Shown here in pieces: positions 1,631 through 47,665 of a DNA stretch of 49,847 bases. The DNA comes from Escherichia phage vB_EcoS_W011D: the sequence record NC_054893.1. One strand, written 5' to 3'. The first letter of the stretch is position 1, and every line of letters starts with the position of its first letter. Below the pieces are notes generated by a model. The model was given only the letters and a program-made list of their open reading frames with translations. It searched no databases and was not told where the DNA came from. Position numbers and translations under genes: made by a program.

Positions 1631-1650
1631 ATAGCATTTTTTGTTAAACG
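1631..1650 (+). promoter_or_regulatory. Conserved 20-bp box copy (ATAGCATTTTTTGTTAAACG), plus orientation inside the leftward structural block
   Basis: Matches the genome-wide box; followed 18 nt later by TAGAGC; sits between a decoration-like gene and the major capsid gene next to hairpin 1605-1626. Confidence 0.5.
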
Positions 1651-1662
1651 TGCAACAGATTT

Positions 1663-2472
1663 TTATGGTAGAGCCGGATTTACAAAATCAAGAATGTATG
1701 TATCTGAAACGCCAGAACCATCGTTAGCGTCCCAATTTATAAACACGGTTCCCTCTGCTGTTCCTGTTGGGGTTACAAGTCCATTCTGATCTACATCAGC
1801 AATATTGTGAACCTCGGATGTTCTTGCTTCATCTTCCCAGCATGACCATGTGCCAGTTCTATCCGTTGCATTATCCGGCTTAACGGTTACACGTAATTGA
1901 ATTGGTTTATTGTTAGGTTGCGGGGAATTCTCTGTAATATCAGACTCAATCAACGCCGCTTTAACTGGTACTGGTGGCGGTCCGATTGGTCGCAACTTAA
2001 CAACGGAAAGATTTACGCCAACAAGGTTAAATTGCTTGTCGTATTTCATAAAGTCGCCTGTAAAAGTCCAGCCGTCAACGATTTGACCATTGCCAGCATT
2101 AACAAAACCATCATCAGCAACATAAACAGCTTGACCGTAGTTAGGCGCTGAATCAATTTGCTCTGTCAAAGCCCAAACTCGACCGCGACGAACAACGTTA
2201 ATTGGATCTCCTGAACGGTAAACCATGTAGCCGCTCGACTCGTCAGAATATAAACAAGAGTGAGTGCGCAACGCGATCCCACAAGGCCGGATTTGCTGGC
2301 TGTACTTCGATGTGATCATGCGGTAGCCGTTAACGATTTCATCAACCATCACAACTTTACCAATCAGAATGGTTTCATCTTTGCAAACGCCAGTACCATC
2401 AATAATATAGCGACTTGAATCCAACATGCACCCTGGCTCAGTTGCACCCCACAAAACGCCATAATCAGACAT
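1663..2472 (-). CDS. Capsid decoration-like protein with C-terminal Ig-like (Big_2-type) segment
   Basis: 269-aa ORF with GGAGAT RBS; N-terminal half is paralogous to the 2535-3023 product (shared GRVW and TGDF motifs); position between scaffold and capsid genes. Confidence 0.5.
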   Translation of the reverse strand: MSDYGVLWGATEPGCMLDSSRYIIDGTGVCKDETILIGKVVMVDEIVNGYRMITSKYSQQIRPCGIALRTHSCLYSDESSGYMVYRSGDPINVVRRGRVWALTEQIDSAPNYGQAVYVADDGFVNAGNGQIVDGWTFTGDFMKYDKQFNLVGVNLSVVKLRPIGPPPVPVKAALIESDITENSPQPNNKPIQLRVTVKPDNATDRTGTWSCWEDEARTSEVHNIADVDQNGLVTPTGTAEGTVFINWDANDGSGVSDTYILDFVNPALP

Positions 2473-2534
2473 AATTTTATCTCCTATGAAAATAAAAAAG
2501 GCACTCTAAAAAGAGTGCCTATTATATCGCGAGA

Positions 2535-3023
2535 TTATGCGCCGAACAACTTCACCTCAATGAGATTGAGATCCTGGAATTTGGTAAAGTCACCAGTTGC
2601 GATCCAATCCGTTTCGATATCTCCGCCAGCGGTATCAGCAAAACCAGTTGCGGATTCAATTTTAACAGGGGTATCGTACTGCGGCGCTACTGCGTCTTTT
2701 GAAATCATCCAAACGCGCCCCTCGGTAATTACGTTGATGCCGCCGCCGTCCTCGTAAACCATTCGGCCATTTTCGCCAGTAGTCTGGAAGTGTGAGCGAA
2801 TCGCAACCCCGTAAGCGTGATCGCCAGCGCTGGTGATCGGCTTGATGATTTTGTTACCCATTGCATCAACGCCGCCATGCTTAACAGCAACGCCAACAAA
2901 AATAGACTTGCCGCCCTCGGTATTCAGAACACAAGCGCCGTCGATGTTATATGCGGAAGTGTCAGCAACTTGACCAGGTAAAGCGCGTGCCATGTTCTTT
3001 TGATAATATGCCGGAATAGCCAT
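2535..3023 (-). CDS. Capsid decoration-like protein (paralogue of 1663-2472)
   Basis: 162-aa ORF with AAGGAGA RBS; shares MVYxxG..INV..GRVW and TGDF segments with the neighbouring gene. Confidence 0.5.
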   Translation of the reverse strand: MAIPAYYQKNMARALPGQVADTSAYNIDGACVLNTEGGKSIFVGVAVKHGGVDAMGNKIIKPITSAGDHAYGVAIRSHFQTTGENGRMVYEDGGGINVITEGRVWMISKDAVAPQYDTPVKIESATGFADTAGGDIETDWIATGDFTKFQDLNLIEVKLFGA

Positions 3024-3035
3024 CTTTATTTCTCC

Positions 3036-4148
3036 TTACTTGTTAAGTTTAGCCAGGCGCGCATTCGGATCTAAAACCGTTTCGCCGTCCTGTTTTTCTT
3101 GTGCCGCATCGCCTTTGGTTGCGATACGTTGAGCCGCCATTTTATCAGAATCTTTAGCCAGATCAAAGGCAACATCAATGTAAGCGTCTGCTTTCATGGA
3201 AATGTCAGCGCCTGTAACCTCTTTGACGTAAGCAACTTTGATTGCTTTTGCGTCCAGGCCATCAGTTTTCACGCCTACTTCCTCGGCAACTTTTACAAGC
3301 TCTGCATGTGCTTCCGCGTCTGCTTTAGCCTGTGCAACGGCTTTTTCGATCTCAGCCGGAATGCCGTCAACTTTGGTTTTCAGTGCATCGCGCTCTGCTT
3401 CCAGGCCATCGGCTTTTACTTTTGCCGCTTCTGCGTCTGCTTTCACGTTTTCAATGAAGGTTGCAACTTCTTTTGGCACATCGAATTCAACAGCGCCGTC
3501 CAGTTTAATTTTTACAGTCATTACATGATCCTCTTTGTTTGAAATTTCGGTGTTATCATACGGGAATTCTTGCTCGCTATCAAGATTCAATTTTGCGATA
3601 CCCGCGCGACCTTTAAACACCATAGCGATATGGTTTACGCTGATATTGGTTTGCACCGCATCAAATCTAACCCAATCCGCGCTGTCTGCTTTCCATCCTT
3701 CCGGCATATCTTCATCAAAGAAATATTCACCAGTTGCGTTGTTGCCCCAGCCTGGTTTGTCAATATCAACGGAAGTGTAACCGACTGACAATTCGGCGGT
3801 TTGCTTTTTCTTCGCGCTCTGAATGGCTCGCTTGTCGTAAATGCTTAACGGAACCTCTACGCCAACCCCATTTGGCACGCCAGCACCAGCGCACGCGCCC
3901 ACAACAACATCCTTTGCATTCTCCGGCGTTACTGTGACGTGTCCGATTGTGATCGGCTTGCCGGAAAACGTTTCCAGTGAATCAGCCTTGAAAACCTCGG
4001 ACGCGGGGCGGAATTCTCGCCGCTCTCCGAAAGGTGTTTTGTAAATCTGCAACCCGATACGGGCAACAATCGGACGGTCTACCAGAAAACCATGTTCATC
4101 AATCTTTGCTTTTACCTGTACGCTATCAAAGCGTTGCACTTTTTTCAT
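3036..4148 (-). CDS. Scaffolding protein candidate with Ala/Lys/Glu-rich coiled-coil C-terminus
   Basis: Track ORF 3036-4205; start moved to internal Met (MKKVQRF) preceded by AAAGGAGAAA RBS; lies between head morphogenesis and decoration/capsid genes. Confidence 0.5.
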   Translation of the reverse strand: MKKVQRFDSVQVKAKIDEHGFLVDRPIVARIGLQIYKTPFGERREFRPASEVFKADSLETFSGKPITIGHVTVTPENAKDVVVGACAGAGVPNGVGVEVPLSIYDKRAIQSAKKKQTAELSVGYTSVDIDKPGWGNNATGEYFFDEDMPEGWKADSADWVRFDAVQTNISVNHIAMVFKGRAGIAKLNLDSEQEFPYDNTEISNKEDHVMTVKIKLDGAVEFDVPKEVATFIENVKADAEAAKVKADGLEAERDALKTKVDGIPAEIEKAVAQAKADAEAHAELVKVAEEVGVKTDGLDAKAIKVAYVKEVTGADISMKADAYIDVAFDLAKDSDKMAAQRIATKGDAAQEKQDGETVLDPNARLAKLNK

Positions 4149-4161
4149 CTTGATTTCTCCT

Positions 4162-6185: not shown

Positions 6186-6202
6186 GTCCTGATCTCCATA
6201 AT

Positions 6203-6227: not shown

Positions 6228-6240
6228 TGATTATATCAGC

Positions 6241-6260
6241 TTTTTAGCAATTAGTGCTAT
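6241..6260 (-). promoter_or_regulatory. Conserved 20-bp box copy (ATAGCACTAATTGCTAAAAA, minus orientation)
   Basis: Box overlaps the terL TAG stop; TATAAT lies only about 4 nt downstream, then the attenuator hairpin. Confidence 0.5.
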
Positions 6261-7825
6261 TTCTTCAAACCTGCCAGCTTTTTCATGCGTGCAACTGGAT
6301 CGTCTGCAAGGTTCATTTCGACGTTAACCGCATCAACGATGTTATCAACTATGTCGTCGTGAGGGTGTGAATCGTCGAATGTGAACGCCGCCACCTCTGC
6401 AAGCAATTCCGCTAACATCGGGTGATTCTCCGGTAACGCAACGCGCCCCGCTCGCATTACTGGCGCTGCATCCATAGCGCGCGTTACTTTGTCCGTGTTA
6501 CGCTGAACGGGATTTATATCAATAGGCAATTTCTTTTTAGCGCCCTGAATCAAACCCGTACCGCTAGCCTTATCCTCAACGTGGATTCTGCGCAATGTTC
6601 CACATTCTTTGTTGCGTTTCCAGCACTGATTAACGAAAGCAACAAAGTTTGTGTCAAGATCCGGCGCTTCCCATTTGCCGCGCACGCCGTCGATAAAGTA
6701 AACACGGTTTTTGTACATTCCCCAATAACAAAACACGGTGTAGTCGTTTAACTCTCCTACTTTCTGCGCCGTATCCGCTGTGATGAATGTATATTCAAAG
6801 CGATCTGGTTTTGGTAGTGTGCATTTCTCGCCGCCGCCGTAATACTGGAACCATTCCACCTTGAACACGTTACCACCCAGCGCGATTGGCTGTTGTTGGT
6901 ACTGTGAAAGGAATGTGTATGGATCAGCAAGCCATAACTCACGCAGTGATTTTGCGCTTTCCTTTGCAGGCCAAAAAGAAAAATACTCTACGCCATCAAC
7001 AACAACAGGCTCGCTTGTCAGAACATCGCGATCAAATTCAGGCTTTAACCAGTCAGGAAGCGTTTCGCGGTATTCGCGAGTAACCAGCGCCGGAATGCTT
7101 ACAACCTCAAACTCAATACCACCCATCCCGCCATTTAACAGGAACCAGGTAGAATCATTGACGTGCAACCGCTGCTGAACAACAACACAAGGAGTGGTGT
7201 CTTTCATGCGACGTGATCGGACGGTGTTTTTTAGGCGCGTGTGAATCGACGCTCGTCGCACTGCGGAAAACATATCATCAGGCTTGTCGGGGTCGTCAAG
7301 CGTCAACATTCCCGTAAAACCATCATCCATGTAACCGCCACGCAAACCTGTTACCTGTCCACCAATGGCGCGGGAGTTTAGTTGCAACCAAACTTTGCCA
7401 TCACGATTTAACGCCGTGATATCCTTTGCGCTTGCCTTTGACAGCTTGCAAGGCCAAAGCTCTTGGAATTCTGGCGATCCGATAATCTCTTTCACGCGCA
7501 TTGAGTTTTGTTGCACCAGCCCATCACTAAATGAAAGGTTTAGGTTGCGCACTTTCTTTCGGCGCTGCATACAATGCACTGGCATGTGAATAGAAAAAAT
7601 TTCCGTCTTGCCGGAACCAGGCGTGATATTAAAGATCACGTTTTGCGCTTCACCTGCAATGATTTGCTCAACCTTCCAGCACAAATAGCTAAAATGCCAG
7701 TTACCCAAAAACTTTTGCCCCTGGAGGAGTTGAAACCAAATGCGGATCATTTTTTCAAATGAGATCTCGCTCATTTCTTTAATGGCGCGTTTCTGCGCCG
7801 CTGTCAAATCTTCCCAAATCAACAT
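6257..7825 (-). CDS. Terminase large subunit
   Basis: 522-aa ORF with Walker A-like PGSGKT near the N-terminus and acidic nuclease-type C-terminal half; follows terS by 2 nt. Confidence 0.85.
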   Translation of the reverse strand: MLIWEDLTAAQKRAIKEMSEISFEKMIRIWFQLLQGQKFLGNWHFSYLCWKVEQIIAGEAQNVIFNITPGSGKTEIFSIHMPVHCMQRRKKVRNLNLSFSDGLVQQNSMRVKEIIGSPEFQELWPCKLSKASAKDITALNRDGKVWLQLNSRAIGGQVTGLRGGYMDDGFTGMLTLDDPDKPDDMFSAVRRASIHTRLKNTVRSRRMKDTTPCVVVQQRLHVNDSTWFLLNGGMGGIEFEVVSIPALVTREYRETLPDWLKPEFDRDVLTSEPVVVDGVEYFSFWPAKESAKSLRELWLADPYTFLSQYQQQPIALGGNVFKVEWFQYYGGGEKCTLPKPDRFEYTFITADTAQKVGELNDYTVFCYWGMYKNRVYFIDGVRGKWEAPDLDTNFVAFVNQCWKRNKECGTLRRIHVEDKASGTGLIQGAKKKLPIDINPVQRNTDKVTRAMDAAPVMRAGRVALPENHPMLAELLAEVAAFTFDDSHPHDDIVDNIVDAVNVEMNLADDPVARMKKLAGLKK

Positions 7826-7827
7826 GA

Positions 7828-8407: not shown

Positions 8408-8415
8408 GTTTGTTG

Positions 8416-10338: not shown

Positions 10339-10395
10339 TTTCAAATCTCCTCGTTTCGCTTCAATGAGGACACTTTAACAAATGTCCTCGCGGAA

Positions 10396-10415
10396 GTTTT
10401 AGCAATTCGTGCTAT
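10396..10415 (-). promoter_or_regulatory. Conserved 20-bp box copy (ATAGCACGAATTGCTAAAAC)
   Basis: Overlaps the TAG stop of the upstream gene; followed by hairpin GAGGACA/TGTCCTC with TAAAGT in the loop region and the conserved leader GCGAAACGAGGAG. Confidence 0.6.
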
Positions 10416-13820: not shown

Positions 13821-13874
13821 GCTTAGTTCCTCGTTGTTTGGTGTGGGGCTACTATACCGCAACCCCAATTTCGT

Positions 13875-13894
13875 GTTTTAGCAATTCGTGCTAT
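13875..13894 (-). promoter_or_regulatory. Conserved 20-bp box copy (ATAGCACGAATTGCTAAAAC)
   Basis: Box follows the TAA-TAG end of a 27-aa micro-ORF. Confidence 0.55.
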
Positions 13895-14778: not shown

Positions 14779-14833
14779 TGCCTTTCCTCTCGTTGGTTGA
14801 TGCGGTCATGATACCAATCAGCACACATGACCG

Positions 14834-15018: not shown

Positions 15019-15073
15019 AGTTATTTCCTCGTTTGTTGTCGATGGGTGTATTATGCCGGATTGCTCCGGCGAT

Positions 15074-15093
15074 GTTTTAACAAAAAGTGCTAT
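15074..15093 (-). promoter_or_regulatory. Conserved 20-bp box copy (ATAGCACTTTTTGTTAAAAC)
   Basis: Box contains the TAG stop of the 28-aa micro-ORF. Confidence 0.55.
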
Positions 15094-15748: not shown

Positions 15749-15803
15749 TGCTAAATCCTCGTTTCGTTTCGATGGGGTTACTATATCGCAACCCCTGAAT
15801 CGA

Positions 15804-15823
15804 GTTTTAACAAAAAGTGCTAT
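15804..15823 (-). promoter_or_regulatory. Conserved 20-bp box copy (ATAGCACTTTTTGTTAAAAC)
   Basis: Followed by hairpin GGGGTT/AACCCC with TATAGT between the arms, then leader CATCGAAACGAAACGAGGA. Confidence 0.6.
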
Positions 15824-16964: not shown

Positions 16965-16992
16965 ATTATAATCAGGCCGCGCGACGTGTCAA
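16965..16992 (-). promoter_or_regulatory. Consensus sigma70-type early leftward promoter (TTGACA - 16 nt - TATAAT)
   Basis: On the minus strand: TTGACA at about 16987-16992 and TATAAT at about 16965-16970 with a 16-nt spacer; A-rich upstream tract. Confidence 0.6.
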
Positions 16993-17029
16993 TGTTTATT
17001 TTGTTTAACAGACGACTACAACCGCACAA

Positions 17030-17650
17030 AAAGACAAAACAGCGCCTAAGTCATTGAAAACAGGCTGTCTTTTTTTCTGTTAACGCTGTTAACGAGTTGC
17101 GGAGGATTAAATATATATAGATGCGCACACGCCACCCCACCCAGGCGAGCGCATACCCATATATCACTATACATCAATCCAGACACTACCCCATATCCAC
17201 CATAAACAGTGTGAACAATAAAAACAACAAATAGATATATATAAATAAATATACTTTAATTTCAATGTATTATAGAGGATTTATAGTGTTTATTTTGTTT
17301 ACTCAACACCGAAAAACGGCGCGGAAACAATGCGGAGAAATCTGTGAACACCCATGAACAAGAGGAGACAAAGCGCCATGGCGAGAGCGAAAACTTGACA
17401 CTTGCGAACCAGGTTTCACCATTCCCCACACAATCAGTAAAAATTCACACTAATTATTGTCTAAACTGCAACAATCACTATCTTGCATGATGTGCAACGA
17501 TATGCGGCTATCATTTCAGATTTTGCAATGGTGCTGCAAAGCGGTTGTTTTATACACAATCCATCAATAGCACTTTTTGTTAAAAGCGATCGGATCTGAT
17601 TTGCTATAGTTACTTCATCGAAACGGGATACCCAATCAGGAGCAAGCAAG
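17030..17650. other. 620-bp AT-rich non-coding region between the divergent early operons, carrying a ~150-bp element homologous to one in 36530-36990
   Basis: No ORF of 60 aa or more with an RBS; contains ACAAATAGATATATATAAATAAATA and GTGAACAC boxes shared with the second region. Confidence 0.6.
17567..17586 (+). promoter_or_regulatory. Conserved 20-bp box copy (ATAGCACTTTTTGTTAAAAG), first of the rightward early block
   Basis: Followed 18 nt later by TATAGT and the CATCGAAACGGGA leader before the 17652 start. Confidence 0.6.
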
Positions 17651-17651: not shown

Positions 17652-17927
17652 ATGAACATCAGCAAAACTACTTTCAACTTTGCCAAGAAACGCGGTCTGG
17701 ATCTGACTGTTGAGGATTTCGGCGACGGTCTGCAACTGTGCATTTGGGAAGCTGATAACGATTGCGAATGGCTTTGCTCCTACCGCATCAACTATGACAA
17801 CTTAACCTGGCATGGCAACGTTTACCTCCCGCAAGAGATTAAAGAGGAATTACCAGCAACTATTAGCAACGAGGTTTTCTTGCGCCAGGTGCTGAAATTC
17901 ATCAGCGACGAAATGAAAAAGGCTTGA
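17652..17927 (+). CDS. Hypothetical protein
   Basis: 91-aa track ORF with AGGAG RBS. Confidence 0.45.
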   Translation: MNISKTTFNFAKKRGLDLTVEDFGDGLQLCIWEADNDCEWLCSYRINYDNLTWHGNVYLPQEIKEELPATISNEVFLRQVLKFISDEMKKA

Positions 17928-17946
17928 TAGCACTTTTTGTTAAAAC
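17927..17946 (+). promoter_or_regulatory. Conserved 20-bp box copy (ATAGCACTTTTTGTTAAAAC)
   Basis: Starts at the stop of the upstream gene; followed by hairpin GGGGTT/..CCCC with TGGCATAAT. Confidence 0.6.
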
Positions 17947-18001
17947 TGGATCGGGGTTAGTTGGCATAATAGCCCCATCAACCAATCAGGAGAATCGAAC
18001 G

Positions 18002-20832: not shown

Positions 20833-21077
20833 GTGAAAAGCGTTATTTAGGCGTTGGCGACGTGCAAAAGGAATGGCGCTATAAAGTCATAGATGGCGAA
20901 ACTTCCTGCATGAAAGTTGGCGATATTATCAAGCCAATTAAGGTTGTTGGCGGCAAATGGCAGATCGGACACAATTACCGCCAATCGTTACCTTTTGAGC
21001 GAATAGATAGCGTTACGGCTGAATGCGTTAGCTCACTGACCGGAAAACTAATGGCTCGCATAGAGCGGATCAAATAG
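20829..21077 (+). CDS. Hypothetical protein
   Basis: 82-aa track ORF; ATGA overlap with the upstream gene. Confidence 0.45.
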   Translation: MSEKRYLGVGDVQKEWRYKVIDGETSCMKVGDIIKPIKVVGGKWQIGHNYRQSLPFERIDSVTAECVSSLTGKLMARIERIK

Positions 21078-21093
21078 CACTTTTTGTTAAAAC
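21074..21093 (+). promoter_or_regulatory. Conserved 20-bp box copy (ATAGCACTTTTTGTTAAAAC)
   Basis: Contains the TAG stop of the upstream gene; followed by hairpin GTTGCCG/CGGCAAC with TATAAT in the loop. Confidence 0.6.
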
Positions 21094-21146
21094 AGGGTAG
21101 TATTGTTGCCGTTATAATTAGCGGCAACAAGAAAGGAGATTTTCAG

Positions 21147-23124: not shown

Positions 23125-23245
23125 TGATCTGATTTATGCGCTGTTAACCATAATGCGAGCCGACATGAAAGCGTTTGGCGACAAGGAGCATAATTTATGT
23201 GATGGTGATGGCGTGATATTGGTTAACGTCAGATTGCTTGAATAG
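23051..23245 (+). CDS. Possible overlapping small ORF (64 aa); may be spurious or a frameshift partner
   Basis: Overlaps 22732-23124 by 74 nt in another frame; weak RBS; its stop lies in the next box copy. Confidence 0.2.
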   Translation: MKNYSAQKLIDEILKHCAVNSISHDDLIYALLTIMRADMKAFGDKEHNLCDGDGVILVNVRLLE

Positions 23246-23261
23246 CACTTTTTGTTAAAAA
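23242..23261 (+). promoter_or_regulatory. Conserved 20-bp box copy (ATAGCACTTTTTGTTAAAAA)
   Basis: Followed by hairpin ACCCGAT/ATCGGGT then TATATT and the CATCGAAACGAAAC leader. Confidence 0.6.
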
Positions 23262-23322
23262 ACCCGATCTTGTATCGGGTATATTTGTTTCATCGAAACG
23301 AAACACACAAAAGGAAATCACC

Positions 23323-24959: not shown

Positions 24960-26081
24960 TTATTTGATCTCCATCATTTCAGGGTAGAACATGAAGCGAC
25001 CAATCTCGCCATATTCCTTATCGTAAACAATCACCGCCGCACGACGACGAGAGCGCCAACCACCGCGCGCCGCGTAAGCGTCTTTTGCTGCCATAGTGGA
25101 ATGTACTTCCACAATCCCCAGGCTCGTTTCTGTTACGGTCTGGTGATGCCAATGGCCTACATGCGCATACATGCTCTTTGAGTTTCCGAAATCCTCCCGC
25201 CAATCTGCCGCGCACATCATCAACAGCGTTTCAGGCTTGCGGATCGTATGTCCATGATGGTAAGCCAGGAACGTTTTACCATATTGCGTGTGATGCACAA
25301 CGCGCGGAGACACATCAACGTTTACGCGAGGCTCGTTTTCGTATGCCGCCGCCATTGCAGCACGTAGCCAGATCATTCCTGATTGGTCGTGATTACCTTC
25401 AATGATTTGCACCTCAACCTCTTTATGCTTTGTCAGCATGAGGCTAATTGCGCGGCGCGTGGCTCGGATTGCAACGTAAACTAATTTTGCGTAACGGCTA
25501 TCTTGATCCAGAACGTGACCGCTTGCAGGTGTTACAGCCTCCAGGCCGTCACTGTGAAGCATATCGCCACCAATCAGGAGCACCGCCTTTTCACTGTTTG
25601 GCGATTTACTAACTGCATAATCGAAAAAGTTATTCATAACCCTTTCCGCCGTTGCGGTGTCGTAGTTCTCGCCGCACTCATGCTTGTGAGCCATTGCCCC
25701 CAGGTGCATATCAAAGATCGGATATAAAGCCAGGCTTTCAGAATAATCAGCGCGTGATTCCGGCTGAGGCTCCAAGCGTGGCACTTCCTCTGCGAAAGCA
25801 TCCATAGCGGCTTGCATGAGAGCCTCTAATTGCTCTTTGTCTTTATTGGTGATAGTCCATCTCATGACTTCCTCACCATTTGCGCGAGTTAAAACAGACT
25901 CGCGCACAACTGCATAACCTGGAGCGCCTTTAATTTCAGTCTCACCAGAACGCGCAAGGCGTGACGCTCGACGCTCGACACTGCGAACATTAAGGCCGAA
26001 CTCCTCTGCGATCTGCTTGTAGGTTTTCCCCTCTTTGCGTGCTTTAATAAACTGCTCGTCGGTGATTTTTCGTACAGCCAT
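24960..26081 (-). CDS. Calcineurin-like metallophosphoesterase with N-terminal helix-turn-helix domain
   Basis: 373 aa; N-terminal HTH-like KTYKQIAEEFGLNVRSVERR; phosphoesterase motifs FDMH, GGDMLHSD and GNHD in order; AAGAGGAA RBS. Confidence 0.6.
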   Translation of the reverse strand: MAVRKITDEQFIKARKEGKTYKQIAEEFGLNVRSVERRASRLARSGETEIKGAPGYAVVRESVLTRANGEEVMRWTITNKDKEQLEALMQAAMDAFAEEVPRLEPQPESRADYSESLALYPIFDMHLGAMAHKHECGENYDTATAERVMNNFFDYAVSKSPNSEKAVLLIGGDMLHSDGLEAVTPASGHVLDQDSRYAKLVYVAIRATRRAISLMLTKHKEVEVQIIEGNHDQSGMIWLRAAMAAAYENEPRVNVDVSPRVVHHTQYGKTFLAYHHGHTIRKPETLLMMCAADWREDFGNSKSMYAHVGHWHHQTVTETSLGIVEVHSTMAAKDAYAARGGWRSRRRAAVIVYDKEYGEIGRFMFYPEMMEIK

Positions 26082-26178: not shown

Positions 26179-26427
26179 CTACCTTCTTTTTTGTGCTTTC
26201 TTTGCCGCGTCCTCTTTTGCCTTTTCCTCTCGGAAAAATTGCAGGGAAGGAATCGCCGGAACCCTGTGAACCTTTCGCGGCCTTTCGTCAATATATGACA
26301 GCTTTCCGTTGCCAATAATACTAACGTCTTTAATATCGAAATATTTAGCAATTAGTGCGATCCCTTCATCTAAACCGCACTCTTTTGCATGTTGCCAAAC
26401 TGCCTGGCGTCCGGTTTCAATCTTCAT
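26179..26427 (-). CDS. Hypothetical basic protein (82 aa)
   Basis: Track ORF 26179-26505 trimmed to MKIETGRQ start. Confidence 0.4.
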   Translation of the reverse strand: MKIETGRQAVWQHAKECGLDEGIALIAKYFDIKDVSIIGNGKLSYIDERPRKVHRVPAIPSLQFFREEKAKEDAAKKAQKRR

Positions 26428-26572: not shown

Positions 26573-26628
26573 TTTGCAAATCCTCGTTTCGTTTCGTTGA
26601 AATGATTATGCCCCACTTTCGCGGGGCT

Positions 26629-26648
26629 GTTTTAACATTTCGTGCTAT
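26629..26648 (-). promoter_or_regulatory. Conserved 20-bp box copy (ATAGCACGAAATGTTAAAAC)
   Basis: Contains the TAG stop of 26645-26878; followed by hairpin CCCCGC/GTGGGG then ATAATC and the conserved leader. Confidence 0.6.
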
Positions 26649-27736: not shown

Positions 27737-27791
27737 TTTAAATGTCCTCGCTTGTCTTGATGTGTGCATTATGGCGCATTCCGTTGCGCCT

Positions 27792-27811
27792 GTTTTAACA
27801 AAAAATGCTAT
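27792..27811 (-). promoter_or_regulatory. Conserved 20-bp box copy (ATAGCATTTTTTGTTAAAAC)
   Basis: Contains the TAG stop of the VRR-NUC gene; upstream of Dam. Confidence 0.55.
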
Positions 27812-30242: not shown

Positions 30243-30297
30243 TTTAAACCTTTAACGTTGGTTCGTTTGACGCTATACTACACGCCTAAACATATGG

Positions 30298-30318
30298 GTT
30301 TTTAACAAAAAGTGCTAT
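30298..30318 (-). promoter_or_regulatory. Conserved box copy (ATAGCACTTTTTGTTAAAAAC) in the divergent helicase / regulator intergenic region
   Basis: Only copy that does not follow an upstream gene; followed by TAGTATAGC about 14 nt later, upstream of the helicase start. Confidence 0.55.
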
Positions 30319-30331
30319 TGAGGAATTTACT

Positions 30332-30775
30332 ATGAATCGAATCGCTGTTTCAACTGGTGAAGTGGATAAACGCACAATCAATGGTAATAACGGGACACGT
30401 CGCGGAAAAGACAAAAAGCCGCGCAAGCGCAAAACAGGTTACTACGTGCTGAAAGATGAAGTAAAGGCCGGATTGCGTGCGCGCCTTGATATCTTACTGG
30501 AGTATTACGGAACGCAAGCCGAAATGTCGCGCCGTTTGAAGGTGTCGTGTCAGACCATTAACCAATGGAAGAAACGAGGCATGATTTCCGCCAGCGGAGC
30601 GCACAAGGTTCATCAGGACTATAAGCGCCAGGGGTGCAAGGGCTATCGCGCTTCATTCTGCCGCCCCGATCTGAAATTCGATTCAAACGGCAAGCCGTTA
30701 ACACTCAAGTGTGAAAAGCGCGAAATGCTCCGCGTTGTTCGCGCCTCAGATTTCGAAAACAGCACAAATAGCTAA
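30332..30775 (+). CDS. Helix-turn-helix DNA-binding regulator candidate
   Basis: 147 aa; basic N-terminus; HTH-like AEMSRRLKVSCQTINQWKKRGMIS; first gene of the rightward primase operon. Confidence 0.45.
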   Translation: MNRIAVSTGEVDKRTINGNNGTRRGKDKKPRKRKTGYYVLKDEVKAGLRARLDILLEYYGTQAEMSRRLKVSCQTINQWKKRGMISASGAHKVHQDYKRQGCKGYRASFCRPDLKFDSNGKPLTLKCEKREMLRVVRASDFENSTNS

Positions 30776-30782
30776 AACACTG

Positions 30783-30818
30783 ATCGCGTATCTGGTATCA
30801 TCCGGCTACGCGATTTTT
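30783..30818 (+). terminator. Hairpin ATCGCGTA/TACGCGAT plus T-run between the regulator and primase genes (attenuator candidate)
   Basis: Inverted repeat followed by TTTTTTATT on the plus strand. Confidence 0.4.
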
Positions 30819-30831
30819 TATTGGTGATGTT

Positions 30832-35355: not shown

Positions 35356-35410
35356 TTCTCATTCCTCTGGTTAACTTGCGAGATTAATTATAACATCCCG
35401 CTTTTCATTT

Positions 35411-35429
35411 GTTTAGCTATTTGTGCTGT
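35411..35429 (-). promoter_or_regulatory. Degenerate box copy (ACAGCACAAATAGCTAAAC) between exonuclease and Erf genes
   Basis: Conserved flanks AGCAC and GCTAAA(A)C retained; TATAAT lies 18 nt downstream. Confidence 0.45.
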
Positions 35430-36543: not shown

Positions 36544-36990
36544 ATAGGTGTAATGTTATTTTTTGTTTTCTGTTGTTTGTTTTCTATAGTGATAACAAAA
36601 TTGCATCGTAAGTTATTGATTTTGTCTTTGTTGTTTTTGTGTTTACCGTGTTCACAGATTTACGCCGGATATATAGGAATAGATACACATAAACAAAATG
36701 ACCATTACACAAAGTGAAATCACCACAACCAACCAAAAACCAATGAAACATAGAGAACAAAAAGAAACAAATAGATATATATAAATAAATAAACTCTTAT
36801 TTTTCATGTATATAGTAATATTTACTGTATGCTTATTGCTCAATAGCTGATTAAAAAATAAGCTAAATTTACGCCTACGCAAATTCGTGAACACTCTGGA
36901 ACAAAAGAAAACAAACGATAGCACTTTTTGCTAAAACTTCCGGTCGAGATCGTGTATAGTGAGCGCATCTAAACCAAAAGAGGAAAACAA
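36530..36990. other. 460-bp AT-rich non-coding region carrying the second copy of the ~150-bp element shared with 17030-17650
   Basis: No credible ORF; shares ACAAATAGATATATATAAATAAATA and GTGAACAC boxes with the first region, same orientation and spacing. Confidence 0.6.
36917..36936 (+). promoter_or_regulatory. Conserved 20-bp box copy (ATAGCACTTTTTGCTAAAAC) upstream of the Cor-like gene
   Basis: Followed 17 nt later by TGTGTATAGT (extended -10-like). Confidence 0.55.
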
Positions 36991-38273: not shown

Positions 38274-41200
38274 TTACCAGTATCCGGTTAAACGTCCAAT
38301 CTGAACACGTAAAACGCCGTTTGCATCCCTAACACTGATCGTTTCGTTTGTCATTTTCATGGAACCATCGCCAGGAGTGGAGCCATAGTTTTCAAACGTG
38401 CCGTTTTTATCCAGCCTCCATCCTGATTGGTTCCAAACATAGTTGTTTGATTGGATGAAGTTACCGATCATGGCGTTTGTGATTGAACCGTCTTTCACTA
38501 ACAGGCTGTTAATGAAAACCTGGTTATTCTCTACCACAAAAGGCAACGTATACGTCCCGCCTGTCGAACTTGTCATGATCGCAAATCTTCCGGCATCAAA
38601 CAGGATTTGTGAAATCAACCCTTGCGGGCTGTTTGATAACTGCATGACCATTCCTGCGCTGTACTTCTGCCCGTTGTATGTCAAGCCCAATTTCATTGCG
38701 TATTGAGCGCCAACGCCGCCAACGCCAGCCCATGAATCAAGTTTTTCAGTCAGTGCGGATTCAACATCGCCAAACTTCGCCGTTAACGCTGTATCAGCCG
38801 AAACACGCGCCTCTGTTTCGTTTGCAATAGCTTCCTCAACTCGCGTTAACTGCCCCTGGATATCATCACCAATCTGTGATTTCAATTCCTCAATGGCTGT
38901 TGCTCGCGTTTCTGATTCTGTTGCAATTGCCTGATCAAGTCTCGTTACTTCGCTAGTTATCTCCTCGTCAAATTCAGCCTTGAGTTGCGTCATTGCGGTA
39001 ACGCGCGCCTCCGTTTCATCTGCGATCAATTGGATTGATTGCCTAAACTCTGCTTTGCGCTTGCCGTTTTCCTTCCTCATTATTCTAACGTCCGTATCAT
39101 TCGCCAATGCGTTTTGAATGATGCTTTGCGCCTGATCTTTAATCTTGTTTGCGCTGTCAATGGCGTTTTCCTTGATTTCCTTTCCGCCCTCAGTATTCCA
39201 GATATCGTCTAAAATGTCTCCAATAATATCTGATACATCATCGGAAGCCATGCCGCGCACAAAATCAGACCAGCCGGAAACGTTTCCGATCCTGTCAACA
39301 CTGCGCACGCGATACCACACAACTTTCCCCGCTGGTAGCGTGCTGTGCCAGTATTCAAACTGCGGATATGGGACAAGCGTTAAAAGGCTTGAGTTTTCCG
39401 CCGTTCCATCTGGTGATTGATGCAACTCAATATAGGCCGTGTCTCCGGTTCCCTCTGGCATACCCCATTTTACGCGAATACCGAAAACCTCATTTGTTGA
39501 TGCAGTAAGGTTTATAGGCTTCCCAGGCTCACCAACTTTACCAGTCAGCGATGCGGTAACTATTCCAGACCAGGGCGACGTAGAGCCGGAAGCGGAAACG
39601 GATCGCACGCGAACGTAATAAACTCCAGCGTAAATCCCCTCCACCTCAATCTCTTTGTTTGCCGTCTGTGGGACGTTTAACCAGTTGCTGTTGTCTTTCC
39701 TCCATTGAACCTCGTATAAGCTCGCGTAAGGCACTTTGTCCCAGCTAACAACCATCGTTTCAACGCTAACACCCTGAACAATGCGAGAGTAAGAGGAAAC
39801 GGCAACATTCTCTGGCGGCTGCATTACGTCAGGTTGCACAATGCTTGTTGGCCTGTCGTCGATGTTAACGCCATAATCAATCTCGTCGTATTTGTTCGGA
39901 TCGTATTCAACGGCTGTGATTGAGTAAGTAAACTCGTCCTCGTTGTCTCCCTTGGTGATTGTCGTCACAACGTATTGCTGCAATGCAATGTCTGTGCGGT
40001 CAATCGCAAACACCGTATCTGGCTGAACGTCAAAGCCAAAACCTATGTTTAGCTCAATGGTTTTTCCGTCTGCGCTCACGTTGGCAATGGTGCGTTTTAC
40101 TGGCTTCCCATCTGGCTTATTTACCATGATGAAATCGCCTGGCCGCGCATCTACTTTAAACGGTAGGAAAACTTGCAGACCGGATACCTCCATAACTCGC
40201 CCCGAAAGGTTGAGCGTTAATGCGCTGCTCCAGAAGTTATCCGCAATCGCCACCACATCACCTATTGACGGGATCATGCCCTCAAGACCTGTTGCAAAGT
40301 TTACCGTTGTGCTGCGCAAGTTGGTTTTCAGAACCCATCGCCCACGGCGGTTTGCTTCGCTGCGTCGTGTGCATCCAATCGCTGTAATGCTCGTTGGATT
40401 GTAGCCAAACCGTAACGCCGCCTCCGTTTCAAAAACCCCCTCAACGTCCTGTTGATACATGTTTTGCTCGTCGTCGAAAGTCACATTGCACTGTGTGTAC
40501 ATGCTCTTTTCGCTGGCGAATGTGTAGCTAAAATCTCCATTAACAACGTTATCATTTGTGAAGATGTAAGACGGCTCTCGCGGTCTATCAACGACAATTG
40601 AAAGGCTCTCACCGTTCCAGAAACTCATTCCACGGAAGATTGAACAAATATCCCTTACAAGCTGATACGCTTCAATCTGGCTTTGGATCACAACGTCGCA
40701 AAGGTAACGCGGCTCTGTTCCGCCCTTTCCATCTGGAACCATCTGATCGCAATATTGCCCCGCCTCGTAAATGCTCCACTTATCAAGTGGAATTCCCAAC
40801 TCACGTTGATCGAGTCCGTAACGCTGATTGGTTATCAAGTCATATAGGATGTAAGCCGGATTGTTAGACCATGCTTTTTTCCAGGTTCCATCCCACGCGC
40901 CGTGGTATTCACGCAAAACAGGATCGTAATTGCTCGGAACGTTTATGATCTTCCATTTCTTTTTTACCGCTATCCGTGGGATCTGGTTCGGGAATAGCTC
41001 GGAATCAAATTCCACATAAACAAGACCTGTCAGCGGATAACGAAATTTAGCGTCTACAACTTCCGCGTAGCTCTGCAACTTAATCAGATCTGTAACCTTT
41101 GACGATGTGCTATCAGGAGTAACACGGCGAACGCGAAACAATACTTGCTCGTTAAAAGCTGGCAAATCAATTCTGCGGCTTCTGTCGTAACCGCTGCGAG

Positions 41201-41699: not shown

Positions 41700-41755
41700 A
41701 GCTTTTAACCTTTTGTGCTGTTTATCGGTTTACACATTATACGGGCGCAAAAAAC

Positions 41756-43841: not shown

Positions 43842-43909
43842 TTGAATTTCTCCTCTTTTAGTGTGCGCATTATAGCACCAATAAAAAAGCCGCACAAAGG
43901 CGGCTTGTC

Positions 43910-44263
43910 TTACTTCATGCTCGTAAACTGCTCTGTGAAAGTTGCTTTCACTTCCTGAACGGTTGGCGAAATCGGCGTTGCTGCAACGCTGCCGCTTTTC
44001 ACTCTAAACAACCCTGGAGATCCGTCCGGCGTAATCCACAAAAACGGCTTTAGCCTGTGATCGTTCATGAACTTGAGCACGTCTTTGTAATCAAGTCCAA
44101 CGTAGGCAATGGAAAACTCACGCCGTACCGTGTTAAATCCAGACGATGCAACTTGCGTGTAACCATTGCCGAAAACAACTTCCCTGTCGTTATTCGTCGT
44201 GGTCATTGCTCCGCCGCTGCTCTGAATTTGCGTACACCATGTAAATTCATCAAGCGCCGCCAT
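43910..44263 (-). CDS. Minor tail protein (lambda M-like)
   Basis: 117-aa ORF immediately after the tape measure gene, overlapping its stop. Confidence 0.6.
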   Translation of the reverse strand: MAALDEFTWCTQIQSSGGAMTTTNNDREVVFGNGYTQVASSGFNTVRREFSIAYVGLDYKDVLKFMNDHRLKPFLWITPDGSPGLFRVKSGSVAATPISPTVQEVKATFTEQFTSMK

Positions 44264-44265
44264 TA

Positions 44266-46956
44266 TTACCCCCTCTTACTATTAACAAAGTTATAAACCT
44301 CGCCGCCTTGCGAGCAAGACCGCTGAATCATTTCCGTGAAAATCATCTTGATTCCTGTTTCCATCCCTTTTGGATCGTTGCCGTTGTTCACGTCAACCAT
44401 GATATCACCGAAATTGAATTGAGATCCAACACCGCCAGCCGCCGCGCCGCGAGAGTATGACGAACCGCCAACACTGCCGCCGTTTGCATATCCACGCATT
44501 AAGCGGTAAAGGTTTTTGGCTCCGATTCGTTGCGTTGCCTCTTTGGTGAAAACAAACTCACCTTTATGAACCACGCCAGCCGGATCATATTTGCCACCAT
44601 CGCCAGTGTAACCGCCTCCCGCAAATCCTTTGGCTAACCCAGCAAACGAGAACGTTGCGCCGCCCATAGCGCCGGATATGGCGTTAAAAATTGCCATCTT
44701 AGCGATCATCTGCACGATCATTTTAATGATGCTCGTTGCAAAGTCTTTAAAGCTTGCTTTTCCGGTAGTCAGGAAATCAGTCATCATGCTTGATAGACCA
44801 TTCAGACCAGCGGTTGCAATTTCGTTGATGTTCGCATAAACGTTTGTTGCCTCAGCGCCATAATCGGCAAACGCCTTTTTAGCACCTGCAACCCAATTGT
44901 TTTGCAACTCGTCTTGCTTGTCGTAAAACGCTTGCTGTTTGGCTAACATATCTTGCAACGTCTGATCATCTTCCTCGCCGCCTTTTGCAACGTAATCGTC
45001 CCTTATCTTCTGCAATTCAAGCTCTCGCTGAATTTGTTGATCTGTCATGCCTTTTTGCTTGAGGTTCAATTCTTCAATCGCTGCGGTTGTCTGCCGGATG
45101 AATTCGACTGAATTTTGCTCAAGTTTGTTTTTGCGCTCCTGAATCAAAATCTGATCGCCTAACTCGGCTTTTTGCCTGGACAACTCAAGCACGCTTTGCT
45201 GTTCGGCAAGTAACTTTTTCTCCGCTGCTGTTAGTCCTCGTTTGCTCTGCGCCTCCTGCAAAATCTCGATCTGTTTTTCAACGCTCCATAGCGATTGGCG
45301 CTGGCGTGAAATTACATCGTTTACAGTTCGGTGCTCTTGCAACGTTTTCAACTGCGCTTGCAAAACGTATAGCTCTTTATCAAGCTGTTCAACAGGACTT
45401 TTGACAATTCCGCCTTTTGTCTTTGTCTTTCCTTTTTTCTCCTCCAGCTTTTTGAGATCCTCAAGCTCTTTACGGCGTAAAGCAACGTTTTCAGCCGCCT
45501 TGCGTTTTAGCTCCTTGTCGGAAGATTGAGCAACATATTTTTCATCTTCAATCGCCTTGTTTAGCGCCTCTTGCGCCGCACGCAAGCGGTTTAATGAAAG
45601 GTTTGTTTTGTCAATCTCTCCAGCACGCTTTGCAAAATCAATGTTGCTTTCTTTCACGATCTTTGCAATATCTGCGTGCGTCTGCTTCGCAATCTCAAGC
45701 CCTCTGTTAATGTGTCCCAATTCCGCATCAGCCAGGGAGCCGCCACCGCCGCCAGTTTGTGAAATGTACTGCTTTTTCTTTTTCAGCACTTCCAACCATG
45801 AATCGCCAAGCTGTAGCACTTTGTTCATGTGATCCGCGATCTCATTGTTGAGGCTCACGAAACTGGATGCGTTTTTGTACTCGTCAACTTTCGCCTTTGC
45901 TTCATCATAGCTATAACCAACGTTAACAAGTTTTTCAATGGCCTGTTGAGCGCTGTCTTTTGTGGTGATGTATGCTTTCGCGATCTCCTCTGCGCTCTTG
46001 CCGGAAGCGTCAGCCAGCGCCTGGATACCTAAAGAAATCTTTTCCGCGAATTCACCGGAAAGCCCAGTTGCATCCTGAACGGTTTTTGATACTTCGTCGA
46101 GCGCCTTTTTAGAACTGTACGCGTTGTAAGTCAGATAACCTAACGTACCAACCAGCGCCGCAAGGCTAACGTTAAACGGCGTGATGAACGTCGCCAGCGC
46201 CTTAAACATCGGAACCAGACCGCCGAAAGAATCTTTGATCTGTCCACCCTGCTGGATAGCGATTAACCAGATAGGCATACCGCCAGCAAGCGACGTTGCA
46301 ACGTCTGTGATCTGCGCCGGAAGCATTCGCATTGCCTGGCGATATTGCCCCATTGAAACGCCCAGCTTTTCAACTTCCTTTTCCTGCGCTCTCAACTGCG
46401 CGATAAATGGCGCTGCTTGCGCGCTTACGCCAAGTTGCGCCGCTTTCATTTCCGTTAGCTCGGCTTGTGTCTTTCCTGCCGCTGCCGCTTGAGCCTCAAG
46501 AGCCGCAATGAATTTCTGCGCCTCAGCCGCCGCCTTTGCTTTCTGCTTTGACTCCTCAAGCGCTGCGCGTCCCTCCTCGGTTAACGCCTTGCGGTTTGCA
46601 GCCAGCTTGTTTGTTTGAGCCTCCAGCATTTCACCCAACTGAAAAAACGTTTCATCAGGGACAATGCCTTTTTTCCATAAGGTATCAAGTTGCTTTGATG
46701 CCTGGCGCAATTTATCCATTTTTGCCGCTGTCGGATCAATTGCATTTTGGATGCTCTGAAACTCTCGGCGCTGTTTTGCTAATTCCTGCGCAAGCTCTTT
46801 GGCTCGTTGCTTTGCAACTTGCTCCTGATCAACAAAGTCCTCAACGCTTTTTGCTGCTTCATTGTTGGCCTGTTTGAATTGCTGCAAGGATTTTACGGCG
46901 TTGTTTACCTGTGAAACGTCAACGCCTAACGATAGCCCAGCGTATTGTTCCGCCAT
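44266..46956 (-). CDS. Tail tape measure protein
   Basis: 896 aa, long Ala/Lys/Glu/Gln-rich coiled-coil regions and a hydrophobic central segment; follows the frameshifted chaperone pair. Confidence 0.85.
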
Positions 46957-46998
46957 GTTTATTCCTCCGATATGAAAAAAGCGCCCGTAGGCGCTTTG

Positions 46999-47439
46999 TT
47001 ATTTGCTTGCGTGCATCATTTCAAGCGCTTTGCTTTCCATTATTCGCAAGTCATTCAATGCCATTTCTTCATCGTCTATTTTATAGATTTTGAACAACAT
47101 AGGCAAAACATTGTAATCAAAGCCGTAAGCACCAGCGCCAGCGGATCGCCATTGAGTTTGCATAGCGCAAAACATATCCCATGATTGCATCATGCTTTCA
47201 TCAAATATGATCTCTGGCGGCTCCTCACCCTCATAATCTGCGCGGGTTAATCCTACGGCCTCCAATTCTGCATCAGTGGGCGGCTTCTGGTAAAACAGGT
47301 TAACCGCCCTTTTTAGTTTTTTACGCGTTGCCCTGCCAGCGCGGAAAGATAGGAACCAGTCAGCGCCAATGCTGCGCCTGGGTAAAACTCCACAAGGGTT
47401 TTTGCGTTTTCCTCGTTGAATTCCTCCTCCAGATCCCAT
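46999..47439 (-). CDS. Tail assembly chaperone, -1 frameshift extension (lambda T-like part of a G-T fusion)
   Basis: ORF in the -1 frame overlapping the 3' end of 47313-47636; slippery heptamer A-AAA-AAC just before the G-frame stop. Confidence 0.6.
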   Translation of the reverse strand: MGSGGGIQRGKRKNPCGVLPRRSIGADWFLSFRAGRATRKKLKRAVNLFYQKPPTDAELEAVGLTRADYEGEEPPEIIFDESMMQSWDMFCAMQTQWRSAGAGAYGFDYNVLPMLFKIYKIDDEEMALNDLRIMESKALEMMHASK

Positions 47440-47636
47440 CCGGTAGCCAGTTTCATGATGAATTCCGAATCGGTCACAATGTTTTCAGATTCATACATCG
47501 CTTGCACTTCTTTTGCCTTGAGGTGTCGAACGGTAAACAGGATCGAACCCTCATTACCATCAGGCATGGTGAATTTAACTGGAAGTTTGAAATCTGGAAG
47601 CGGGGCGAGTGTGAGTTTGAATTTAGCCATTGTCAT
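47313..47636 (-). CDS. Tail assembly chaperone (lambda G-like)
   Basis: 107-aa ORF between the major tail gene and tape measure gene; ends VKN-stop right at the slippery site. Confidence 0.65.
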   Translation of the reverse strand: MTMAKFKLTLAPLPDFKLPVKFTMPDGNEGSILFTVRHLKAKEVQAMYESENIVTDSEFIMKLATGWDLEEEFNEENAKTLVEFYPGAALALTGSYLSALAGQRVKN

Positions 47637-47645
47637 TTCTCCTGA

Positions 47646-47665
47646 ATAGCATTTTTTGTTAAAAT
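47646..47665 (+). promoter_or_regulatory. Conserved 20-bp box copy (ATAGCATTTTTTGTTAAAAT), plus orientation inside the leftward tail module
   Basis: Followed 18 nt later by TAGAGT; sits between the major tail gene terminator and the chaperone gene, opposite to the gene direction. Confidence 0.5.

Follow-up and report, generated by a model that had tools for sequence, protein, structure and literature searches.

The genome of Escherichia phage vB_EcoS_W011D (NC_054893.1; the whole stretch of 49,847 nt was analyzed and is called the window below) is ∼98% identical to that of Escherichia phage PaulSarasin (BASEL Bas09; Drexlerviridae, Tempevirinae, Changchunvirus). Its early arms and a few late-gene junctions carry a 20-bp intergenic box, ATAGCAC-N5-GYTAAAAC, which, in a first-pass annotation of the sequence, had looked like part of a second promoter class. 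The repeat as such had already been described in the 2024 re-annotation of phage TLS by DeGiulio, Ramsey, Kropinski, Misra et al., where 18 intergenic 21-nt repeats with the consensus aaATAGCACnnnTTGnTAAAA follow the direction of transcription, lie ∼76 nt before start codons, and form A, T, and G subgroups (PMC11447400). The same paper places the repeat in T1, Rtp, and Rogue1 and leaves its function open, with stoperators, enhancer-binding sites, and UP elements as ideas; the fixed-spacing -10 element, the marbox match, and the hairpins reported below are not part of it (PMC11447400). Copies of the box are also annotated as repeat_region in the record of phage Stevie, and novelty can thus not be claimed for the repeat. 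Inverted repeats were reportedly proposed in the Rtp genome paper as sites for the regulator Rtp52. What our analysis adds is to identify the box as a class II marbox, for which a host reader of the MarA/SoxS/Rob type is our leading hypothesis. A literature search, which did not extend to subscription journals including those with the T1 and Rtp genome papers, found no paper linking the marbox to T1-like phages and no start-site or transcriptome data for Drexlerviridae.

We scanned the window with the pattern of the first-pass annotation, ATAGCAC-N5-GYTAAAAC, and with the relaxed pattern ATAGCACNNNTTGNTAAAA, using dinucleotide shuffles as chance expectation. The first pattern has 10 exact copies in the window, compared to 0.00 in the shuffles, and 20 copies with ≤2 mismatches, compared to 0.23. 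The relaxed pattern gave 25 matches with ≤3 mismatches, where 2.6 were expected. The family is therefore real, with 20-25 copies against 0.2-2.6 by chance. All positions listed in the first-pass annotation were recovered, with small offsets at 14832 (not 14834), 30299 (not 30298), and 36918 (not 36917). The list stands but had overlooked one copy, 30759(+), and the relaxed scan added a degenerate copy at 26342(-). A match at 7676(+), within the terminase gene, is probably due to chance. As had been stated for the early blocks, all early-region copies are oriented with transcription. The boxes at 1631(+) and 47646(+) are in antisense orientation relative to late genes, and those at 6241(-) and 41702(-) have no -10 element at the proper distance. 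The TAG stop codon of the upstream gene indeed forms box positions 2-4 in several cases, but this overlap is trivial, since the box has TAG and TAA in two reading frames.

Promoter Geometry of the Box Units

Oriented alignments confirmed the proposed order of elements: the box, ∼18 nt, a TATAAT-like hexamer, a short A-rich leader with a Shine-Dalgarno sequence, and the start codon. Of the window copies, 19 have a -10-like hexamer 17-19 nt 3' of the box, and in 14 of these the distance is exactly 18 nt. The hexamer is directly preceded by TGn in 10 copies, and the base 7 nt 3' of it is an A in 16 of the 19 units. We then scanned five relatives, namely T1 (Tunavirinae), TLS (Tempevirinae), Rtp (Braunvirinae), Rogue1 (Rogunavirinae), and Klebsiella phage KP36 (Webervirus). 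Each carries 14-20 copies with ≤2 mismatches, and sequence and layout are unchanged. Together with the window, these genomes gave a pooled set of 109 box copies from six Drexlerviridae genomes. A -10-like hexamer follows 16-20 nt 3' of the box in 91 of them (84%), in 74 at exactly 18 nt, while the random control was flat. The pooled copies have a G at -14 in 81% and TG (as TGn) in 42%, and the predicted start, 7 nt past the hexamer, is an A preceded by a C. This corresponds to a standard σ70 set of -10, extended -10, and start, but without a -35 hexamer.

Relative to these predicted starts, the box spans about -50 to -31 and is centered at -40.5. The -35 position of the units reads AAAACn, which matches the -35 hexamer at only two to three of six positions, and a TTGACA/TATAAT scan picked up only 2 of the 19 box units. 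TTGYTA within the box was ruled out as a -35 element, because the spacer would be 22 bp and thus too long. Sequence and comparative evidence uphold the earlier view that the box occupies -50 to -31 in place of a -35 hexamer, and both support a second, factor-dependent promoter class, with promoter function read from the predicted starts.

The contrast class consists of promoters at the head of the arms. The first-pass annotation had described both operon-initial promoters as plain TTGACA-N16-TATAAT. This holds for 16992-16965(-), a 12/12 match, but not for 36544-36517(-), which reads TTGACT-16-TAGAAT (10/12). These two are the only promoters that look factor-independent. A non-coding stretch of ∼580 bp (16990-17570) with AT-rich runs (atatatata, aataaatatac) lies between the divergent early arms and matches the map ends of the T1 and TLS genomes; a terminal redundancy boundary, an origin, or both may be located there.

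Resemblance to Class II Marboxes of the Host

Marboxes are 20-bp asymmetric sites for the monomeric AraC-type activators MarA, SoxS, and Rob (RamA in Klebsiella and Salmonella), which carry a pair of helix-turn-helix (HTH) motifs. The marbox consensus of the mar/sox/rob regulon is AYnGCACnnWnnRYYAAAY (PMC3709825), and the phage box fits it at 14 of the 15 specified positions. Not more than one mismatch to this consensus was found in 20 of 23 window copies and in 91 of the 109 pooled copies. Used as an independent probe with ≤1 mismatch, the consensus gave 13-23 matches per phage genome, compared to ∼1 in shuffles. Position 10 of the pooled boxes is always A or T (T 60, A 49, no G or C; n = 109), position 14 is a pyrimidine (C 56, T 49, other 4), and positions 8 and 9 are unconstrained. 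GCAC and AAA, the elements contacted by the two recognition helices of MarA (PMC8811837), are essentially invariant in the 109 copies.

We compared the phage boxes with host sites in the MG1655 sequence; micF (forward) and marRAB (reverse) served there as a check of the orientation convention. The micF promoter consists of ACAGCACTGAATGTCAAAAC, 18 nt, TAGAAT, 7 nt, and the RNA start. Its box is identical to the phage box ATAGCACGAAATGTTAAAAC at 16 of 20 positions and has the same 18-nt gap and an A at position 19. The marRAB marbox (reverse complement ATGCCACGTTTTGCTAAATC) shares 16 of 20 positions with the phage box ATAGCACTTTTTGCTAAAAC. Marbox-like 20-mers 5' of sodA, nfo, and fumC, which we take to be the functional marboxes, partly in line with what was reportedly described by Martin et al. 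1999, lie 18, 18, and 17 nt from a -10-like hexamer, respectively.

Class II promoters of this regulon are defined by a marbox in forward orientation near -41, in overlap with the -35 region, no recognizable -35 element, and a canonical -10 and start (PMC12052159, PMC10268841); at micF, RamA sits at about -41 (PMC8811837). The phage units show the consensus match, the forward orientation, a predicted -41-type position 17-19 bp from the -10 element, and no -35. At the level of sequence, they have every feature of class II MarA/SoxS/Rob promoters. Like the host promoters of this class (micF, fumC, sodA, nfo, lpxC P2), they combine a forward asymmetric marbox with a canonical -10 and lack a -35. 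They differ from the host sites in density, with ∼20 per 50 kb on a virulent genome, and in their far better match to the consensus than most host sites: most phage copies have one mismatch, compared to three in sodA and two in nfo. The phage sites also have three extra fixed positions (A3, T11, T12) and a GC-rich hairpin in the spacer and discriminator. All units are listed together with the genes discussed below in Table 1.

Table 1. Box units, contrast promoter, and candidate regulatory genes in the window (gap, distance from box to hexamer in nt; hexamer, sequence at the -10 position with preceding TGn where present)
Positions	Strand	Feature	Gap	Hexamer	Remarks
1631..1681	+	Antisense box between 269-aa head gene and major capsid gene		TAGAGC	Poor hexamer at -10 position
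6241..6260	-	Box between large terminase and portal genes			Lacks a -10 at 17-19 nt; TATAAT 5 nt off, then strong terminator
10365..10415	-	Box promoter ATAGCACGAATTGCTAAAAC	18	TGtTAAAGT	Predicted start 10365; -10 in hairpin loop
11666..11716	-	Box promoter	18	TGtTATAGT	-10 in hairpin loop
12668..12718	-	Box promoter ATAGCACGAAATGTTAAAAG	18	TATAAT	Box 15/20 identical to micF marbox
13844..13894	-	Box promoter	18	TATAGT	-10 in hairpin loop
14801..14851	-	Box promoter ATAGCACGAAATGTTAAGCG	18	TGgTATCAT	Degenerate 3' end
15043..15093	-	Box promoter	18	CATAAT	Hairpin between box and -10
15773..15823	-	Box promoter	18	TATAGT	Leader CATCGAAACGAAACGAGGA; -10 in hairpin loop
16965..16992	-	Consensus σ70 promoter TTGACA-16-TATAAT			Boxless, contrast class; heads - strand early arm
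17567..17617	+	Box promoter	18	TGcTATAGT	Precedes first gene of + strand early arm
17927..17977	+	Box promoter	18	TGgCATAAT	-10 in hairpin loop
19049..19098	+	Box promoter	17	TGgTATAAT	-10 in hairpin loop
20337..20387	+	Box promoter	18	TGgCATAAT	Hairpin 5' of -10
21074..21125	+	Box promoter of 526-aa helicase gene	19	TATAAT	
23242..23292	+	Box promoter	18	TATATT	Hairpin and T-rich tail scored terminator-like
24960..26081	-	373-aa protein gene (T1 gp16 family)			N-terminal σ70 region 4-like HTH and metallophosphoesterase domain
26311..26361	-	Degenerate copy ATCGCACTAATTGCTAAATA	18	TAGTAT	Within coding sequence as annotated in PaulSarasin (bas09_0041)
26598..26648	-	Box promoter ATAGCACGAAATGTTAAAAC	18	CATAAT	Hairpin loop contains GAAA; box 16/20 identical to micF marbox
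27761..27811	-	Box promoter of Dam methylase gene, ATAGCATTTTTTGTTAAAAC	18	CATAAT	
30268..30318	-	Box promoter of 666-aa DNA helicase gene	18	TAGTAT	-10 at 30275-30280
30332..30775	+	147-aa single-HTH Cro/Xre-like regulator gene (T1 gp23 / Rtp52 family)			
30759..30823	+	A-type box ACAGCACAAATAGCTAAAAC ahead of primase gene	17	TGgTATCAT	Predicted start 30808
35380..35429	-	A-type box ACAGCACAAATAGCTAAACA ahead of recombinase gene	17	TGtTATAAT	0 mismatches to marbox consensus
36918..36967	+	Box promoter of small lipoprotein (Cor-like) gene, ATAGCACTTTTTGCTAAAAC	17	TATAGT	Box 16/20 identical to marRAB marbox
41702..41721	-	Box-like ACAGCACAAAAGGTTAAAAG			Ends 2 nt before ATG of J-like tail tip gene; no -10
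47646..47696	+	Antisense box just 3' of major tail protein gene	18	TGgTAGAGT	Kept in place in T1

A few copies depart from this layout. The antisense box at 1631(+), just 5' of the major capsid gene, occupies the same place in T1 and TLS; counterparts of the antisense copies are located at 15068(-) and 18832(-) in T1 and at 15024(-) in TLS. With its hexamer at 18 nt, the box at 47646 could be an antisense promoter. A class I reading of 1631 and 47646, in which each would be a reverse marbox of the late gene, was ruled out for lack of space, because not more than 45 nt, or only a Shine-Dalgarno sequence, lie between them and the start codon of the late gene. The box-like sequence at 41702 is kept in T1 (25021(+)) and TLS (24908(+)), and its AAAAGG may be a ribosome binding site. 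The T1 counterpart of the degenerate copy 26342-26361(-), at 40308(+), is intergenic, and the annotated start of bas09_0041 may be wrong.

Hairpins, Leaders, and Distribution of the Cassettes

The 31-nt segment from the end of the box to the predicted start was folded for 91 units. The mean minimum free energy (MFE) was -8.8 kcal/mol, compared to -3.6 kcal/mol in shuffles (mean z -2.6). In 46 units, the -10 hexamer lies between the arms of the hairpin, with the GC-rich discriminator as the 3' arm. Another 24 units have the hairpin between the box and the -10 element, often with GNRA or UUCG loops, which suggests that the hairpins function in RNA. Several hairpins are annotated as rho-independent terminators in the T1 record, and our terminator scan flagged some. 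At the junction between the regulator and primase genes (30759-30823), a true terminator (arms 30783-30790 and 30807-30814, T-run 30815-30820) has the -10 element in its loop and the predicted start in its 3' arm. This layout is also found in T1, TLS, and KP36. On the simplest reading, each unit is a composite terminator-promoter cassette. For its hairpin step, we infer that RNA reading through from upstream would form the hairpin and be terminated, attenuated, or 3'-stabilized, while RNA initiated at the cassette would start just past the hairpin and escape it.

The cassettes may also mark sites of genome variation. When the window was compared with PaulSarasin, three to four of the five edges of early-region replacements in this one genome pair fell inside a box-to-start-codon cassette. 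Late-operon insertions in Rtp, Rogue1, and T1, which comprise HNH endonuclease genes and extra open reading frames, carry their own cassette.

A BLAST search with the box had matches in 1064 phage records, nearly all of which belong to phages that infect Enterobacterales. This number is close to that of records with a Drexlerviridae-type capsid gene (996). We looked for Drexlerviridae of non-enterobacterial hosts as a natural experiment, but essentially all relatives infect Enterobacterales. Some 20 records named "Campylobacter phage" (e.g., A118 and A121; host C. jejuni) are ordinary T1-like genomes with the box, and their capsid gene is 78% identical to that of the window; the assignment of these records to C. 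jejuni looks doubtful.

A scan of viral contigs led to the box in two genera outside the Drexlerviridae, Murrayvirus (IME_EC2, 59% GC) and Hungariovirus (C130_2, 55% GC), which are podoviruses with P22-like morphogenesis genes. IME_EC2 has six and C130_2 seven exact copies, and a TATAGT-like hexamer again follows after 18 nt. The proteins that they have in common with Drexlerviridae are replication and recombination enzymes only; this shared module comprises an SNF2 helicase (49% identity), primase, exoVIII, Erf, Dam, Dcm, and VRR-NUC. The box units of C130_2 include a ATCGAAACGAAC-type leader, and since the likeness extends this far, it suggests that the cassette and the replication/recombination module spread horizontally. 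As a side observation, the leader CATCGAAACGAAACGAGGA is conserved well past the Shine-Dalgarno sequence (e.g., 15772-15752 and 26597-26578), is A/C-rich and unstructured, and is found again in C130_2 and further Drexlerviridae genomes. Its role may be to enhance translation or to serve as a target for an RNase.

Candidate Readers of the Box and Rival Explanations

On balance and with moderate confidence, we favor the view that the box units are class II marbox promoters that would be occupied and activated by MarA, SoxS, or Rob of the host. An activator bound to the marbox over the -35 region would contact σ region 4 and the C-terminal domain of the RNA polymerase α subunit (α-CTD) and thereby replace -35 recognition. 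Among the three proteins, the constitutively abundant Rob would be the most plausible occupant. Some 19 early and middle units would be driven in this way, including those of small early genes, two helicases, the primase, the recombinase, and Dam. A host reader is favored because the box is identical in unrelated phages that share only the enterobacterial host. Moreover, the box heads an early arm (17567; likewise in T1, TLS, and KP36), so its promoters should work before phage proteins exist. A phage-encoded MarA-like (AraC/XylS) activator was rejected: no in-frame match to MarA, SoxS, or Rob was obtained by tblastn in nine phage genomes, and Pfam found no AraC-type domain (HTH_18, HTH_AraC) in 23 early proteins. 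The one match in IME_EC2 (E = 0.002) was spurious, being out of frame with the annotated gene.

Several observations weigh against a host activator. Position 19 of the box is usually an A instead of a pyrimidine, the only systematic departure from the marbox, although micF has an A there as well. Positions 3, 11, and 12 (A, T, T) are nearly invariant, yet unspecified in the marbox. Because two of these fixed positions complete a 5-bp dyad, TAGCA-N5-TGCTA, a further reader of the box may exist. T1-like phages grow very fast in unstressed laboratory cultures, which contain little MarA and SoxS and in which Rob is considered largely sequestered and inactive. The TGn copies (∼40%) may work without an activator and have useful basal activity. 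Finally, LL5, a T1-like phage with >90% identity to TLS, was used in a Keio screen, in which lipopolysaccharide genes, tolC, secB, and ppiB were the only hits; the rob, marA, and soxS single knockouts were not among them, and none of these genes is thus singly essential (PMC7229145). This negative result counts for less, without losing all weight, because the three paralogues are redundant and the screen applied a 20-fold threshold.

The dyad leads to the 147-aa Cro/Xre-like regulator, which could bind TAGCA-N5-TGYTA as a dimer and activate from -42 or later shut transcription off, the likeness to the marbox being coincidental or secondary. Its gene is a conserved core gene (≥42% identity, mostly >50%, across 36 aligned homologues), and the AlphaFold2 (AF2) model is confident (predicted local distance difference test, pLDDT, 86), with Foldseek assigning the predicted fold to the single-HTH Cro/Xre type, unlike MarA. 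A hidden two-HTH protein was rejected on the same grounds, as model and Foldseek gave one HTH. The gene adjoins a box in its own 5' leader. Its candidate -10, TATACT (30274-30279, +), overlaps the helicase -10, TAGTAT (30275-30280, -), which is a classic autoregulatory layout. The divergent promoters in 30243-30331 look like a mutually exclusive switch, judging by this overlap, and the divergent helicase/regulator layout is kept in T1, TLS, Rtp, and KP36. The T1 regulator promoter is a good TTGAAT-17-TATAAT. The invariance of A3 and T12, which the marbox leaves unspecified but which complete the dyad, also speaks for such a regulator, as do the Rtp52 sites reportedly proposed in the Rtp genome paper at inverted repeats upstream of genes. 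A check for a Cro/cI-type operator, which has two symmetric half-sites ∼10 bp apart, did find the TAGCA-N5-TGCTA core, but the dyad accounts for only 10 of the ∼14 conserved positions, fewer than the marbox: A1, C7, A17, and A18 are conserved outside the symmetry, and of the symmetric pair formed by positions 4 and 14, the G at position 4 never varies, whereas only 51% of copies have a C at position 14. In addition, the recognition helix of the regulator varies among homologues and the box does not, box promoters head an early arm, where transcription must come before phage proteins, and IME_EC2 and C130_2 have the same box and spacing without a detectable homologue of the regulator. We therefore regard the regulator as an unlikely primary reader. 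It is compatible with a host reader, since it could compete at the same site and end early transcription.

The second phage candidate is the 373-aa protein, the HTH of which scores 25.2 bits against Pfam Sigma70_r4_2 here and 26.6 bits in KP36, with a cut-off of 25.7. As a universal reader it was rejected, because no homologue is detectable in IME_EC2 and C130_2, which keep the box. The protein is core, is annotated as "DNA repair exonuclease", and represents an odd fusion in a phage without a σ factor.

Could the promoters do without a factor? UP elements consist of A/T tracts with degenerate sequence at -59 to -38, and the box could be a conserved UP-like or curved element touched by α-CTD in front of extended -10 σ70 promoters. 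The G at -14 in 81% and TGn in 42% of the pooled copies, their good -10 hexamers, and the A/T-rich center of the box fit this idea, as do the UP-element analogy raised by the TLS authors (PMC11447400) and the lack of a host activator gene among the LL5 hits (PMC7229145). A UP element would not explain why G4, C5, A6, C7, and G13 are invariant or nearly so (100-109 of 109) in a box of ∼30 bits that reaches -31; with its fixed GCAC and G13 and this extent, the box does not belong to the UP element class. Moreover, more than half of the copies have no TGn, hexamers of the CATAAT or TATAGT type, and no -35. For this reason most units are predicted to be weak promoters when unaided, and we consider a factor-free mechanism quite improbable. 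A σ54 promoter (TGGCAC-N5-TTGC, with an invariant GG at -24 and GC at -12) does not match either, as the box reads TAGCAC-N3-TTGY, with a gap of 3 instead of 5 nt and an A for the first G of GG.

Among known phage systems, T4 middle promoters are similar in that an activator box replaces the -35 inside early units of a virulent phage while the σ70 -10 is kept. The T4 MotA box (TGCTTtA) is centered at -30 and read by phage MotA together with σ appropriation by AsiA. The present box is unrelated in sequence and centered at -40.5, and a phage reader is not evident, although MotA/AsiA homologues were not searched for; we do not assign the units to this type. The stoperators of mycobacteriophage L5 are likewise many oriented, asymmetric, and intergenic phage sites. 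A main role other than initiation, either as such a roadblock or silencing site or, together with the hairpin, as an RNA processing or termination signal, would agree with the orientation and intergenic location, shared with stoperators (PMC11447400), with the highly significant hairpins, several of them annotated terminators in the T1 record, and with the copies at 41702, 6241, 1631, and 47646, which lack a usable downstream gene or promoter geometry and yet are conserved in T1 and TLS. But L5 stoperators are 13-bp repressor sites that serve lysogenic silencing and have no fixed relation to a -10, whereas the present phage is virulent and its boxes have fixed promoter geometry. The orientation rule fits the stoperator class; the -10-like hexamer kept at 16-20 nt by 84% of the 109 copies does not. 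Hexamer and C-then-A start context would be needless for a roadblock or RNA signal, and genes inserted in Rtp, Rogue1, and T1, such as those for HNH endonucleases, come with a box unit of their own, as autonomous expression units do. We give very little credence to a main role of this kind.

The cassettes might also be kept mainly because recombination between them shuffles small early genes, with promoter activity as a by-product. They resemble the PeSL cassettes of T4-like phages, which are a precedent for recombination cassettes and in which a repeated intergenic promoter and stem-loop flank small variable genes at indel boundaries (PMC2839356, PMC4122927). The replacement edges relative to PaulSarasin and the occurrence of a cassette with a ATCGAAACGAAC-type leader in unrelated genera point the same way. 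PeSL promoters, however, are ordinary σ70 early promoters, whereas the present cassettes have an activator site in place of the -35 and occur across unrelated phage families. Recombination needs homology only and leaves the marbox sequence, the code-following free positions, and the fixed -10 spacing unexplained. As the chief function it has hardly any probability in our view; it is compatible with a promoter role, to which it is probably secondary.

Activation by the host marbox proteins, as favored above, can be carried further, though only tentatively and with some doubt: nearly all early and middle transcription of ∼1000 sequenced Drexlerviridae and at least two podovirus genera might be wired, via ∼20 class II marboxes in each genome, to host MarA, SoxS, Rob, or RamA, the activators of the response to antibiotics and oxidative stress, with the Cro-like regulator competing at the dyad for shut-off. 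The identification of the box as a class II marbox makes the question raised by the TLS repeats answerable by a few standard experiments. If confirmed, these would be rare virulent phages with an early program run by a host stress activator instead of a factor of their own or plain σ70, and the cassettes would offer small, portable promoter-terminator units that depend on an activator. With such wiring, expression of phage genes would reflect or exploit the stress state of the host (bile, salicylate, redox drugs, antibiotics), and acrAB-tolC, micF, and the other members of the regulon would lose activators to replicating phage DNA by titration. The mar/sox/rob regulon controls efflux-mediated antibiotic resistance and the expression of TolC, which is the receptor of TLS. 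Drexlerviridae are common candidates for therapy and biocontrol, and their growth might depend on, or disturb, the mar/sox/rob regulon.

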